From: Escherichia coli
GTDB taxonomy: Bacteria > Pseudomonadota > Gammaproteobacteria > Enterobacterales > Enterobacteriaceae
Reading direction: 5' to 3' (one strand)
Length of the DNA stretch: 64,000 nucleotides
NCBI RefSeq assembly: GCF_003334335.1
Contig: NZ_QOWQ01000026.1
A program made the position numbers and the translations under genes. Under the pieces are notes generated by a model that made no database searches, was not told the origin of the DNA, and saw nothing but the letters and a program-made list of their open reading frames with translations. Below are positions 2,882 through 35,262 of the stretch, one piece after another (position 1 is the stretch's first letter; each line of letters begins with the position of its first letter).

Positions 2882-4792
2882 TTACCTGGAGGATGGTATC
2901 GCAAGGAAACGAACCGCACGGGCAATGTCACGGGTGCGTGGCGCGGGCGGCAGACTGGCGAGAAACGTCGCGCCGTAAGGACGCATCACCAGCCGATTGT
3001 CACAAATCACCAGCACGCCACGATCGTCGGCGTCGCGAATCAGTCGCCCTACCCCCTGTTTGAGAGTAATGACGGCATCTGGTAGTTGCACTTCATCGAA
3101 CGGGTCGCCACCGCGCAAACGACAATCTTCCATGCGCGCTTTTAACAGTGGATCATCCGGCGAGGTAAACGGCAATTTGTCGATAATTACCAATGACAAT
3201 GTATCGCCACGCACGTCCACCCCTTCCCAGAAACTGCTGGTTGCCACAAGAAGCGCATTACCGGCGCTGACAAATTGCTGCAACAGTTGCCCTTTGCTGG
3301 TTTCCCCCTGCAACAATACAGGAAGCGTCATGGTAGCGCGGAACTGCTCGGCCAGATCGCGCATCATGGCGTGCGAGGTACAAAGCATAAAACAACGACC
3401 GTTGTTAGCTTCGATGATCGGTCGCAGCATTGCCGCTAACTGGCGAGCAGAACCTGGCTGGTTGGTTTGCGGCAGATTGCGCGGCACACAGAGTAACGCC
3501 TGGCGGCTGTAATCAAATGGGCTGGGCAACAGCAACGACTCGGCCTGTTCGATGCCAAGCCGCGAGGTGAAATGATGCAGATCGTCGTTCACCGACAGCG
3601 TTGCTGAGGTGAAGATCCAGCTACCGGGTTTTTGCGCCATTAACTCTTTGAATTTATCCGCCACGCTGAGCGGCGTGAGAGCCAGAGTAAAATGGCGCGA
3701 AGTGCATTCGTACCAGTAGCTGTAGCCCGGCTGATTGATCTCTTTTAGCCGCTTCAGCCGTGTGCGATACAACGTGGCGCGCTCAAATGCCGCATCCAGC
3801 AAGGCGGAACGCCCCAGTGACAGTTTCGCCACGTCATAACAAAGTTCCAGGGTGTCATCGAGCAGTAAAAATGCCCGCTGAATTTGCGGATTAGCTAACA
3901 GCTCACGCAGGTTACCGCGATAACCTGGCTCACCGAGTTGCAGACGAAAATCCTGCGCACTCTGGGCAAGACGATCAGCGCACTTTTGTAACTGCTGGGT
4001 GTCTTTTAATTCGGTGCGGTAGGCGATGGTGATGTCTTTTGCCAGGTCGAGCAGTTGTCGACTGGAGAGTGACTGACCAAAATACTGGCTGGCAATGTCC
4101 GGTAGCTGGTGGGCTTCGTCGAAGATCATGACGTCCGCTTCCGGGATCAGTTCGCCAAATCCACTCTCTTTAACCACCATATCCGCCAGAAAGAGATGAT
4201 GGTTTACCACCACCACATCGGCGTCCATCGCTTTTTTACGTGCTTTGACCACAAAGCAATCTTTATACATCGGGCAGTCGCTGCCAAGACAGTTGTCGTT
4301 GGTGCTGGTGACCAGCGGCCACGCCTGTGAATCTTCCGCCACGCTGACGCAGGTGCTGATATCACCATCGACTGTTTGATTAGACCAGGAGCGCAGCAGG
4401 ATCACATCGCTTAAGATTTGTACCGGCAGATCGCCCCCCGCCAGCGCCTGCTGTTCGAGACGTTCGAGGCAGAGGTAGTTTGAGCGCCCTTTCAGCAGCG
4501 CCACGTTGCCCGTATATTTCAATGCCTTTGAGACTGTTGGCAAATCGCGGCTGTAGAGCTGATCCTGCAACGCTTTTGAGCCGGTCGAGATAATGACTTT
4601 CTTTTTCGCCCGCAGCGCAGGAGCCAGGTAAGCGTAGGTTTTGCCCGTACCGGTTCCTGCTTCCACCACCAGCGGCTGGCCTTTTTCTATCGCCTGGGTG
4701 ACGGCTACCGCCATCTGTCGCTGTGGTTCTCGCGGCTTAAAGCCTGGTATCGCTTTCGCCAGCTGACCGTCTGGTGCAAAATCGTCCGTCAC
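2882..4792 (-). CDS. yoaA: ATP-dependent DNA helicase YoaA (DinG/XPD-like)
   Basis: ORF track 636 aa; Walker A GTGTGKT, DEAH-type motif (FDEAHQL) and helicase C-terminal motifs. Confidence 0.92.
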   Translation of the reverse strand: MTDDFAPDGQLAKAIPGFKPREPQRQMAVAVTQAIEKGQPLVVEAGTGTGKTYAYLAPALRAKKKVIISTGSKALQDQLYSRDLPTVSKALKYTGNVALLKGRSNYLCLERLEQQALAGGDLPVQILSDVILLRSWSNQTVDGDISTCVSVAEDSQAWPLVTSTNDNCLGSDCPMYKDCFVVKARKKAMDADVVVVNHHLFLADMVVKESGFGELIPEADVMIFDEAHQLPDIASQYFGQSLSSRQLLDLAKDITIAYRTELKDTQQLQKCADRLAQSAQDFRLQLGEPGYRGNLRELLANPQIQRAFLLLDDTLELCYDVAKLSLGRSALLDAAFERATLYRTRLKRLKEINQPGYSYWYECTSRHFTLALTPLSVADKFKELMAQKPGSWIFTSATLSVNDDLHHFTSRLGIEQAESLLLPSPFDYSRQALLCVPRNLPQTNQPGSARQLAAMLRPIIEANNGRCFMLCTSHAMMRDLAEQFRATMTLPVLLQGETSKGQLLQQFVSAGNALLVATSSFWEGVDVRGDTLSLVIIDKLPFTSPDDPLLKARMEDCRLRGGDPFDEVQLPDAVITLKQGVGRLIRDADDRGVLVICDNRLVMRPYGATFLASLPPAPRTRDIARAVRFLAIPSSR

Positions 4793-5989: not shown

Positions 5990-6108
5990 GTTAAATTTAT
6001 ATCAGCATAAATGGGTCAGGACGCTTTTAATCACATATAAAAAGCGTCCTTTTTCTCACAATCAAATGATCATCGGCTTCTATAACGAAATCGATACGGA
6101 TTAGTGTG

Positions 6109-6361: not shown

Positions 6362-7723
6362 ATGAAGACGTTATCTCCCGCTGTGATTACTTTACCCTGG
6401 CGTCAGGACGCCGCTGAATTTTATTTCTCCCGCTTAAGCCACCTGCCGTGGGCGATGCTTTTACACTCCGGCTATGCCGATCATCCGTATAGCCGCTTTG
6501 ATATTGTGGTCGCCGAGCCGATTTGCACTTTAACCACTTTCGGTAAAGAAACCGTTGTTAGTGAAAGCGAAAAACGCACAACGACCACTGATGACCCGCT
6601 ACAGGTGCTCCAGCAGGTGCTGGATCGCGCAGACATTCGCCCAACGCATAACGAAGATTTGCCATTTCAGGGCGGCGCACTGGGGTTGTTTGGCTACGAT
6701 CTGGGCCGCCGTTTTGAGTCACTGCCAGAAATTGCGGAACAAGATATCGTTCTGCCGGATATGGCAGTGGGTATCTACGATTGGGCGCTCATTGTCGACC
6801 ACCAGCGTCATACAGTTTCTTTGCTGAGTCATAATGATGTCAATGCCCGTCGGGCCTGGCTGGAAAGCCAGCAATTCTCGCCGCAGGAAGATTTCACGCT
6901 CACTTCCGACTGGCAATCCAATATGACCCGCGAGCAGTACGGCGAAAAATTTCGCCAGGTACAGGAATATCTGCACAGCGGTGATTGCTATCAGGTGAAT
7001 CTCGCCCAACGTTTTCATGCGACCTATTCTGGCGATGAATGGCAGGCATTCCTTCAGCTTAATCAGGCCAACCGCGCGCCATTTAGCGCTTTTTTACGTC
7101 TTGAACAGGGTGCAATTTTAAGCCTTTCGCCAGAGCGGTTTATTCTTTGTGATAATAGTGAAATCCAGACCCGCCCGATTAAAGGCACGCTACCACGCCT
7201 GCCCGATCCTCAGGAAGATAGCAAACAAGCAGTAAAACTGGCGAACTCAGCGAAAGATCGTGCCGAAAATCTGATGATTGTCGATTTAATGCGTAATGAT
7301 ATCGGTCGTGTTGCCGTAGCAGGTTCGGTAAAAGTACCAGAGCTGTTCGTGGTGGAACCCTTCCCTGCCGTGCATCATCTGGTCAGCACCATAACGGCGC
7401 AACTACCAGAACAGTTACACGCCAGCGATCTGCTGCGCGCAGCTTTTCCTGGTGGCTCAATAACCGGGGCTCCGAAAGTACGGGCTATGGAAATTATCGA
7501 CGAACTGGAACCGCAGCGACGCAATGCCTGGTGCGGCAGCATTGGCTATTTGAGCTTTTGCGGCAACATGGATACCAGTATTACTATCCGCACGCTGACT
7601 GCCATTAACGGACAAATTTTCTGCTCTGCGGGCGGTGGAATTGTCGCCGATAGCCAGGAAGAAGCGGAATATCAGGAAACTTTTGATAAAGTTAATCGTA
7701 TCCTGAAGCAACTGGAGAAGTAA
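6362..7723 (+). CDS. pabB: Aminodeoxychorismate synthase component I
   Basis: ORF track 453 aa; chorismate-binding family motifs (PIKGT, SPERF, GGSITGAPK). Confidence 0.95.
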   Translation: MKTLSPAVITLPWRQDAAEFYFSRLSHLPWAMLLHSGYADHPYSRFDIVVAEPICTLTTFGKETVVSESEKRTTTTDDPLQVLQQVLDRADIRPTHNEDLPFQGGALGLFGYDLGRRFESLPEIAEQDIVLPDMAVGIYDWALIVDHQRHTVSLLSHNDVNARRAWLESQQFSPQEDFTLTSDWQSNMTREQYGEKFRQVQEYLHSGDCYQVNLAQRFHATYSGDEWQAFLQLNQANRAPFSAFLRLEQGAILSLSPERFILCDNSEIQTRPIKGTLPRLPDPQEDSKQAVKLANSAKDRAENLMIVDLMRNDIGRVAVAGSVKVPELFVVEPFPAVHHLVSTITAQLPEQLHASDLLRAAFPGGSITGAPKVRAMEIIDELEPQRRNAWCGSIGYLSFCGNMDTSITIRTLTAINGQIFCSAGGGIVADSQEEAEYQETFDKVNRILKQLEK

Positions 7724-33868: not shown

Positions 33869-34525
33869 TTATTGCAATTGCACAAGAGTCAGTTCGCCCC
33901 CAAAGACAGCACCTGTATCAATATAATGCAGGTTGCCAATATCCACGCGATGGCGCAACGGTGTATGACCAAACCAGAAATGATCAGCACCTGTAATTCC
34001 CTGCCCTTTTTGGCGTTCACCTAATCGCGAGCGGCTCCACAAGACCTGATGCAAATCAACGTCCTTTTGCCATTCATAAACATCATCTGGATAATCGGCA
34101 TGAGCAATAACATGTTTGCCGGTGCGACTATGTACTTCAAGAATAAAGGGCAAATGCTGACATTTTTCCAGCGCCGTTTTCGCTTGTTTCTGTTGATTAT
34201 CTGCCAGCGCAATAAACCAGTCGCCGCCATTCATCAACCACAAAGACATCTGCTGGGATGCCAGCGCATCCATCGCCATCTGTTCATGATTGCCTCTTAC
34301 CGCACAAACCCAATGTTGTTCCAGTAACTGCAGACAACGTAAACTTTGCGGCCCACGATCGATAACGTCTCCCACTGAGATAAGTAAATCTCGCCACGGA
34401 TCAAAACGACAATGCCATAATTTGCGGCGCAACTGCTCAAGACAACCGTGTATATCGCCAGAAAGCCAGATATGTCGCCATTGATGACCCGCAATTCTCT
34501 GATAAACGGGCGCAGGCTGTTTCAT
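33869..34525 (-). CDS. pphA: Serine/threonine protein phosphatase 1 (PPP-family)
   Basis: ORF track 219 aa; metallophosphoesterase motifs GDIHG, GDVIDRG, GNHE; start is one of two adjacent ATGs. Confidence 0.92.
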   Translation of the reverse strand: MKQPAPVYQRIAGHQWRHIWLSGDIHGCLEQLRRKLWHCRFDPWRDLLISVGDVIDRGPQSLRCLQLLEQHWVCAVRGNHEQMAMDALASQQMSLWLMNGGDWFIALADNQQKQAKTALEKCQHLPFILEVHSRTGKHVIAHADYPDDVYEWQKDVDLHQVLWSRSRLGERQKGQGITGADHFWFGHTPLRHRVDIGNLHYIDTGAVFGGELTLVQLQ

Positions 34526-34766
34526 CAATATTTTCCTCCCGCGCTAAAGATCACATAATCTTAACAAGAATGTTAAAAAACGCTGGACTCAGACAGTAGA
34601 GTGTGTGTTATGGTTGACTATAAAGTCAGCGAAGGAAATGCTTCTGGCTTTTAACAGATAAAAAGAGACCGAACACGATTCCTGTATTCGGTCCAGGGAA
34701 ATGGCTCTTGGGAGAGAGCCGTGCGCTAAAAGTTGGCATTAATGCAGGCTTAGTTGCCTTGCCCTT
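34520..34766 (+). ncRNA. ryeA: RyeA (SraC) sRNA, antisense partner overlapping SdsR
   Basis: RyeA is known to be encoded opposite SdsR between pphA and yebY; ends placed from recalled length (~250 nt), not determined from sequence. Confidence 0.4.
34659..34762 (-). ncRNA. sdsR: SdsR (RyeB) sigma-S-dependent sRNA
   Basis: Minus-strand read GCAAGGCAACTAAGCCTGCATTAATGCCAACTTTTAGCGCACGGCTCTCTCCCAAGAGCCATTTCCCTGGACCGAATACAGGAATCGTGTTCGGTCTCTTTTT matches the SdsR sequence as I recall it, including the terminator hairpin and U-tract. Confidence 0.85.
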
Positions 34767-34920
34767 TAAGAATAGATGACGACGCCAGGTTTTCCAGTTT
34801 GCGTGCAAAATGGTCAATAAAAAGCGCGGTAGTCATCAGCTTAAATGTTAAAAACCGCCCGTTCTGGTGAAAGAACTGAGGCGGTTTTTTTATTGGAAAT
34901 CAAAAGGCTATTTTAGGTAA

Positions 34921-35262
34921 TTAACAGAGTTTTTCAGCTCGTTCTATAAACGGTGCCAGACTCATTTTTTCGCCGGGATTGTTAGGATCATCAATCTGAA
35001 TCACCGAAATCGGCTGGGCTTTAGTCTTCCCACTGGCAACTTCCTTTTGTGCGATATCGTTTAAAGGATACTGCACGAGGGTACTTGGGTTGATGACATA
35101 CAAAGCATTACCCGGTCGGCAAGTCAGCATCACCTCTTCGCGATTAAACGCCCATTTGTCTTTACCCACTTCAAAACGGCTGACGGTAATCACCTGCGGT
35201 GCCGCCAGCGCCGCTGCAGAACTGGTGAGTAACAGAAACGCCAGAATACTTTTTTTCATCAT
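34921..35262 (-). CDS. yebY: Periplasmic protein YebY (DUF2511)
   Basis: ORF track 113 aa with signal peptide [20 protein letters not shown]; last gene of yobA-yebZ-yebY. Confidence 0.88.

Follow-up and report, generated by a model that had tools for sequence, protein, structure and literature searches.

The sdsR/ryeA antisense RNA locus in an Escherichia coli sequence: comparison with K-12, distribution among species and prophage attachment

The sdsR-ryeA pair of Escherichia coli is the founding type VIII toxin-antitoxin system, in which overexpression of SdsR is lethal and RyeA rescues (PMC8610362). Its classification as an RNA/RNA system reflects the toxicity of excess SdsR and the relief that RyeA provides; in K-12 the toxin-antitoxin label rests on overexpression, with growth arrest arising through repression of yhcB and being neutralised by the antitoxin RNA. 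In vitro transcription in K-12 compared sigma-70 with sigma-S at the two genes, and RyeA and SdsR were found to degrade each other (PMC6610125). The same study reported transcriptional interference and found that the neighbouring pphA gene is transcribed mainly from the sdsR promoter by read-through of the sdsR terminator (PMC6610125), which places pphA under the same circuit. Capture of double-stranded RNA with p19 identified ryeA-ryeB as the top stationary-phase RNase III cluster (PMC7373196).

Related work in Salmonella established the role of the SdsR seed, RNase E processing at nt 31, the Hfq sites and the critical nature of C38 (PMC5137417). According to the account of Balbontin et al. 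2008 given in PMC7380047, the last 23 bp of ryeB serve as a phage attachment site in Salmonella DT104, and lysogens show lower ryeA and higher ryeB expression. Here we describe the corresponding locus within a 64,000-nucleotide stretch of DNA (the window), which shares with the type VIII system of Choi et al. (2018/2019) the same locus and the combination of an RNA toxin with a cis-antisense RNA antitoxin.

The SdsR/RyeA pair and its match to K-12

A 4-kb stretch of the window aligns with K-12 MG1655 without gaps at 98.95% identity and, judged by its sequence, the window is E. coli chromosome. The whole window was scanned against Rfam, giving three matches above threshold, two of them at the SdsR/RyeA locus. 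The third, RF01766 (cspA thermoregulator), lies at 18708-19168 on the minus strand (135.5 bits, threshold 78) and aligns across the coding region of a cold-shock protein; its location in comparison with K-12 matches the yobF-cspC transcript and not cspA. The features of the sdsR/ryeA locus are as follows.

33869-34525, minus strand: pphA coding sequence (open reading frame and annotation)
34606-34614, plus strand: ryeA sigma-70 promoter, extended -10 element TGtTATGGT, identical to K-12
34622-34893, plus strand: ryeA (sraC), 272 nt; K-12 b4432 aligns ungapped with 3 mismatches
34660-34694, minus strand: SdsR Rho-independent terminator, an 11-bp stem (34694-34666) followed by a U-tract (terminator scan)
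34660-34763, minus strand: sdsR (ryeB), 104 nt; K-12 b4433 aligns ungapped with 0 mismatches
34722-34746, minus strand: SdsR target-pairing (seed) region, nt ~18-42, unpaired in the fold
34764-34796, minus strand: sigma-S-type sdsR promoter, sequence identical to K-12
34850-34893, both strands: bidirectional Rho-independent terminator, from folding; the same hairpin forms at the 3' end when all of RyeA is folded
34921-35262, minus strand: yebY coding sequence, directly upstream of sdsR (open reading frame and annotation)

This is almost certainly the canonical E. coli sdsR/ryeA locus, with convergent promoters 140 bp apart and fully overlapping RNAs. The reading follows from the Rfam matches, identity to K-12, the terminators, the SdsR fold, conservation, and a mechanism published for the same sequence; no sequence evidence contradicts it. 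Both products are RNAs, antisense to each other and encoded at one locus, which is the geometry of a type VIII RNA toxin with its RNA antitoxin.

The initial annotation of this DNA had SdsR on the minus strand, essentially verbatim and with its terminator hairpin, and this proved accurate. All 104 of 104 nt are identical to K-12 sdsR, the terminator scan detects the hairpin at 34694-34666, and Rfam family RF00111 (SdsR_RyeB) matches 34660-34759 on the minus strand along the entire model, positions 1-100 (114.4 bits; gathering threshold 38 bits; E = 1.8e-21). Lack of an SdsR match in Rfam had been named as grounds for dropping the assignment; the match is present and above threshold. In K-12 the sdsR start was mapped 1 nt downstream of the annotated end, equivalent to window position 34762 (Choi 2019, PMC6610125), and the 3' ends at +100 to +102 (PMC6610125); by these positions the primary transcript would span 34762 down to 34661-34663, a length of 100-102 nt. 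The 104-nt sequence folds into three hairpins (-35.2 kcal/mol, z = -3.8, with 0 of 200 shuffles as good), and a long single-stranded stretch separates hairpins one and two. Within the seed region lie the conserved UAGCGCAC with C38 and, close to nt 31, the site of RNase E processing.

Upstream of the SdsR start, the arrangement GTCATC-TATTCT-TAAAG constitutes a putative sigma-S-type promoter with a C at -13. Its parts are the -10 box TATTCT (34774-34769), C(-13) at 34775, the A/T-rich discriminator TAAAG, and a -35-like element, TGGAAA (34796-34791, minus strand). TATTCT is the hexamer that primer PM_SdsRR replaced in K-12 (PMC6610125), and the sigma-S features and dependence of the sdsR promoter, with its C-13, have been described (PMC3333887). 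The window copy therefore shares with K-12 sdsR (b4433) and RF00111 the same 104 nt, the TCTATTCTT promoter with C-13, the three hairpins, the terminator and the position downstream of yebY, with no sequence difference from the K-12 gene.

RyeA had been placed on the opposite strand, overlapping SdsR, and K-12 b4432 does map to the plus strand here with 269 of 272 nt identical. The three substitutions relative to K-12 (34827 T>C, 34831 G>A and 34842 G>T) lie in the 3' part of RyeA, between the stretch that pairs with SdsR and the terminator. SdsR is nested wholly within RyeA, and RyeA nt 39-142 are the perfect complement of the entire SdsR. Beyond the SdsR 3' end RyeA has a predicted sigma-70 promoter of its own, with the -10 box TATGGT at 34609-34614 and a start at 34622, the most downstream of three starts mapped for K-12 ryeA (PMC6610125). 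Replacement of TATGGT in K-12 by primer PM_RyeAF abolished RyeA (PMC6610125).

The 3' ends of K-12 RyeA were mapped at +261 to +270 (PMC6610125) and coincide with the terminator at 34850-34893. On the plus strand this element forms a hairpin at 34850-34889 followed by U7 (-20.0 kcal/mol, z = -4.4), and on the minus strand, where it sits 28 nt beyond the yebY stop codon, a hairpin of -19.8 kcal/mol followed by U5 (z = -3.6). Because the hairpin folds equally well on both strands and lies past the end of yebY, we regard it as a bidirectional terminator common to RyeA and the yebY transcript. Transcripts from upstream of yebY must read through it to reach sdsR or pphA, and the same applies to a previously reported far-upstream pphA promoter. 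In comparison with K-12 ryeA (b4432) and RF00101, the window has the same extended -10 element, start, 272-nt length, terminator and complete overlap with SdsR, and differs from the K-12 gene by the three 3' substitutions. The prediction of a RyeA transcript at this position thus draws its support from sequence identity to K-12 at the promoter, start sites and terminator mapped there.

Two scans missed parts of this architecture. A sigma-70 consensus scan detected neither the sdsR nor the ryeA promoter, as expected for a promoter of sigma-S type (sdsR) and for one with an extended -10 and a weak -35 (ryeA). One -35/-10-like site at 34937-34910 on the minus strand was set aside, since 1 was found against 1.1 expected by chance, and it is unrelated to the mapped promoters; we do not take it for the sigma-32-like pphA promoter described earlier. 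The terminator scan did not pick up the RyeA terminator, which folding shows, probably because the bulged stem and loop break the scan rules.

That the RNAs form a known sense/antisense pair is borne out by sequence identity to K-12, where the locus is annotated and was mapped by experiment, and by its occurrence throughout the species: a 481-nt query spanning the locus matched 5,426 of 5,426 complete E. coli genomes at 95% identity or more in each, with a 100% match in one strain, and was contiguous in 5,189 of them. Of 5,665 sites that match the pphA-sdsR-yebY segment, one is on a plasmid rather than a chromosome. The proposed location between pphA and yebY agrees with the flanking coding sequences. 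The interval first given for the pair, 34518-34770, covers SdsR and the duplex region in full and only nt 1-149 of the 272 of RyeA; it leaves out the 3' 123 nt with the terminator and is shifted to the left of the true extent, 34622-34893. Its left 104 nt (34518-34621) lie outside both RNAs and hold the first 8 nt of the pphA coding sequence, the pphA 5' leader and the RyeA promoter, while its right end (34770) falls inside the SdsR -10 box (34769-34774). The proper annotation is sdsR at 34660-34763 (minus) plus ryeA at 34622-34893 (plus), a functional non-coding locus that tracks based on open reading frames overlook. The biology is not new: SdsR/RyeA is a textbook sigma-S-dependent, Hfq-binding small RNA with its cis-antisense antagonist, tied to mutagenesis (mutS), efflux (tolC) and envelope control (yhcB). 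The pair has been described in detail before, and at the positions that matter this copy does not differ from the reference.

Predicted operation of the locus

By analogy with experiments in K-12 and Salmonella, on which we base expression, sigma-factor dependence, targets, RNase III decay, interference and toxicity, the locus may work as follows. In stationary phase, sigma-S RNA polymerase would start at about 34762 on the minus strand and stop at the hairpin 34694-34666, giving SdsR as an Hfq-binding RNA of ~102 nt. Its single-stranded, near-invariant nt ~18-42 would then base-pair with many mRNAs, among them tolC, mutS and yhcB, and repress them, and partial read-through of the sdsR terminator would supply most of the pphA mRNA. 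In growing cells, sigma-70 polymerase would start at about 34620-34622 on the plus strand, cross the whole sdsR gene together with its promoter, and end at 34850-34893 to yield an RNA of ~270 nt. This transcription is expected to interfere in cis with the facing sdsR promoter, also lowering expression of pphA, and the RyeA RNA would form with SdsR a perfect duplex of ~102 bp that RNase III degrades. Interference and duplex decay together would restrict SdsR to stationary phase.

A prophage attachment site in the SdsR terminator

The locus was non-contiguous in 237 of the 5,426 complete E. coli genomes (~4%). Two of these split genomes were inspected; in both the match begins at window position 34659, adjoining the SdsR 3' end, and both carry a prophage. 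In strain FDAARGOS_943 (NZ_CP065615.1, segment 825001-875000) sdsR is separated from pphA by a 47.5-kb lambdoid prophage, with a tyrosine integrase and an excisionase beside the site and ipaH3 at the far end; it also contains a RecE-family exonuclease pseudogene, a Gam-family gene and four tRNA genes. The two prophage junctions in NZ_CP065615.1 overlap exactly on window positions 34659-34690, and NZ_CM177019.1 has the same integrase/excisionase pair at the same site. A duplicated core next to a tyrosine integrase was thus found in both genomes, and the equivalent site in the window is empty.

34659-34690, no strand assigned: prophage attachment core (attB), unoccupied, inside the SdsR terminator and the 5' part of RyeA
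5990-6040 of the E. coli locus L002: prophage/SdsR site

In FDAARGOS_943 the phage end restores the SdsR terminator, whose stem is then perfect and followed by U7, and SdsR remains intact. The RyeA promoter and the first ~69 nt of RyeA remain on the pphA side, 47 kb away. If our reading of RyeA is correct, then in prophage-carrying strains (at most ~4%) sdsR would be severed from both the RyeA promoter and pphA. The prediction for such strains is that neither the antitoxin nor transcriptional interference restrains SdsR, that pphA is deprived of its main promoter, and that transcription from the orphaned RyeA promoter enters the end of the prophage in the direction of ipaH3. That promoter faces the prophage in the same orientation as ipaH3, ~645 nt upstream of the ipaH3 start codon. 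The SdsR terminator is also a live prophage integration site, and the circuit would be rewired in lysogens.

The ryeA/ryeB insertion hot spot of Salmonella (phage PhiW104), as far as it is described in the source cited above, uses the same ryeB/sdsR 3' terminator segment as its attachment site, whereas the E. coli element is a 47.5-kb lambdoid prophage with ipaH3 and the site in the window is empty. The integrase/att end of the E. coli prophage (L002, 4794-6010) is 97% identical over 1,217 nt to PP818812.1, a record named 'Actinobacillus phage vB_Apl-pPE4', the match lying in its last 1.2 kb. At 47,508 bp this record has nearly the length of the E. coli prophage, and Actinobacillus seems a strange host to name for an element that is inserted in a small RNA gene of E. 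coli.

Distribution of SdsR and RyeA across species

We searched one genome per species for the SdsR core TAGCGCACGGCTCTNNNNNNAGAGCCAT, a pattern of 22 specified bases for which ~0.03 chance matches are expected, and obtained at least 120 species loci, nearly all from Enterobacterales and with Shewanella included. SdsR was found by blastn in 120 of the 120 loci listed, and a yebY homologue in 106 of them. The sdsR promoter motif CTGGAAAA...TCTATTCTT recurs across Enterobacteriaceae among these loci, with CTAC[TG]CT variants in Yersinia, Serratia and others, and the SdsR terminator is present at every listed locus that is not cut by a contig end.

In an alignment of 81 distinct sequences, 100% of cells in the terminator helix are paired, and compensatory double changes occur at 3 of its pairs (G-C to C-G or U-A; A-U to G-C; U-A to A-U or C-G). 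The structure of SdsR is thus borne out by the three-hairpin fold, the scanned terminator and covariation in the terminator helix. AAUGCCAACUUU, which the search pattern leaves unconstrained, is at least 90% conserved in the same 81 sequences; helix 2 and UAGCGCAC are fixed by the pattern, and their invariance is an uninformative artefact. In helix 1 only 79% of cells are paired, in a MAFFT alignment whose variable 5' end is poorly registered.

Conservation also bears on the proposal that the region encodes a small protein, SdsR or RyeA being a dual-function RNA, a possibility that we consider very remote. Three candidate open reading frames do exist.

34817-34626, minus strand: 63-aa open reading frame (mechanical list)
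Within 34817-34626, minus strand: 37-aa open reading frame internal to it, with its AUG at SdsR nt 25
34754-34870, plus strand: 38-aa open reading frame (mechanical list)

The ATG at SdsR position 25 occurs in 100 of the 120 listed species, where the peptide MPTFSARLSPKSHFPGPNTGIVFGLFL would be conserved. All three codon positions are near-invariant, though, pointing to selection at the level of the RNA, which explains the apparent conservation of the peptide; the ATG is missing in most Shewanella copies, and the sequence before it, read directly, has no Shine-Dalgarno sequence. We reject the 63-aa frame as coding: among the 120 loci it is confined to Escherichia, an in-frame TAG at SdsR position 16 closes the frame in 56 of the 120 listed species, and its end varies from position 54 to beyond 324 among the loci listed. 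Its start also lies upstream of the SdsR start site. On the plus strand, two of the three substitutions relative to K-12 fall at second codon positions of the 38-aa frame, and no coding sequence is annotated here in K-12 or by PGAP. The initial annotation had dismissed the small frames of this region as spurious, and the failure of the minus-strand frame to persist across the species loci compared agrees with it.

RyeA has a different distribution. Its promoter and 5' segment (34560-34659) were found by blastn in 2 of the 120 loci listed, both Escherichia, and not in E. albertii; its 3' segment (34801-34893) was found in 4 of the 120. These figures describe sequence similarity rather than antisense transcription, which non-homologous promoters could also drive, and Salmonella is not among the 120 listed loci, so that statements on RyeA distribution cover the sampled genera only. 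In Salmonella and Shigella, SraC is made from a -10 box ~35 bp further upstream. The antagonist arm appears far less conserved than SdsR, in agreement with Froehlich et al.

A match to the Rfam RyeA model does not alter this picture. RF00101 (SraC_RyeA) matches 34656-34800 on the plus strand with 175.1 bits (gathering threshold 37 bits), and the model covers 145 of the 272 nt of RyeA. The matched segment is complementary to SdsR together with the sdsR promoter, and each SdsR locus tested gave an RF00101 score above threshold, among them five Shewanella loci (51-65 bits) in which nothing besides this match resembles RyeA. Because the model mirrors SdsR and its promoter and matches every SdsR locus, it cannot show that RyeA is made, and we rejected the match as proof of RyeA. 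The Rfam check suggested for the pair at the outset thus holds for SdsR, through RF00111, and for RyeA supplies no independent evidence. Outside Escherichia, Shigella and Salmonella, RyeA annotations made automatically may lack any corresponding transcript.

It could be argued from this distribution that only SdsR is functional and that RyeA is incidental antisense transcription, arising from a chance promoter in variable DNA and without a selected function. The contrast between 2 of 120 loci for the RyeA promoter segment and 120 of 120 for SdsR, and an Rfam model that merely mirrors SdsR, fit such an account; so does the split locus of ~4% of E. coli genomes, since in the two inspected the prophage parts the RyeA promoter from sdsR, a separation that the locus evidently tolerates. 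We nevertheless consider it unlikely, because mutation of the K-12 ryeA -10 box caused SdsR to be expressed earlier and raised pphA, and because RyeA relieves SdsR toxicity. Furthermore, the promoter region is kept across E. coli, the 481-nt query being at least 95% identical everywhere and contiguous in all but the split genomes, and the SraC transcripts of Salmonella and Shigella indicate that antisense transcription recurs despite differing sequence.

We tentatively suggest, at slightly less than even chances, that it is a young and essentially Escherichia-restricted antisense promoter in variable DNA abutting the attachment site, rather than an ancient partner of SdsR. Compared with the type VIII framing, the antitoxin arm looks lineage-restricted and the toxin is a widely conserved regulatory small RNA; with the RyeA promoter detected only in Escherichia among the 120 listed loci, the toxin-antitoxin framing may not generalise. 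SdsR itself would be far older than RyeA, extending across Enterobacterales and, in recognisable form, to Shewanella next to rsmF.

Five Shewanella genomes carry an SdsR-like gene, matched by RF00111 at 81-87 bits (threshold 38).

L031, 9565-9667, plus strand: SdsR-like gene (RF00111)
L042, 9643-9745, minus strand: SdsR-like gene (RF00111)
L059, 6865-6966, minus strand: SdsR-like gene (RF00111)
L077, 2041-2143, plus strand: SdsR-like gene (RF00111)
L099, 1590-1691, minus strand: SdsR-like gene (RF00111)

They have in common with SdsR UAGCGCAC, hairpin 2 and a terminator with compensatory changes; the -10 box is CTACACT and the 5' third differs. None of yebY, yebZ, yobA and pphA was found near the five genes. 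The gene of L031 lies directly downstream of an rsmF homologue, and in the window rsmF is 1.4 kb from sdsR. Among 14 papers that mention SdsR as well as Shewanella, none names the two together in title or abstract.

The variable region between sdsR and pphA holds a further RNA match in two Klebsiella genomes, where a RydC-family sequence lies 180-320 nt past the sdsR 3' end on the RyeA strand. It was absent from the Raoultella and K. oxytoca loci, some of which are short. The two matches are:

L088 (Klebsiella indica), 3239-3302, plus strand: RydC-family match, 65.9 bits (threshold 48)
L086 (K. pneumoniae), 7017-7079, plus strand: RydC-family match, 48.9 bits (threshold 48)
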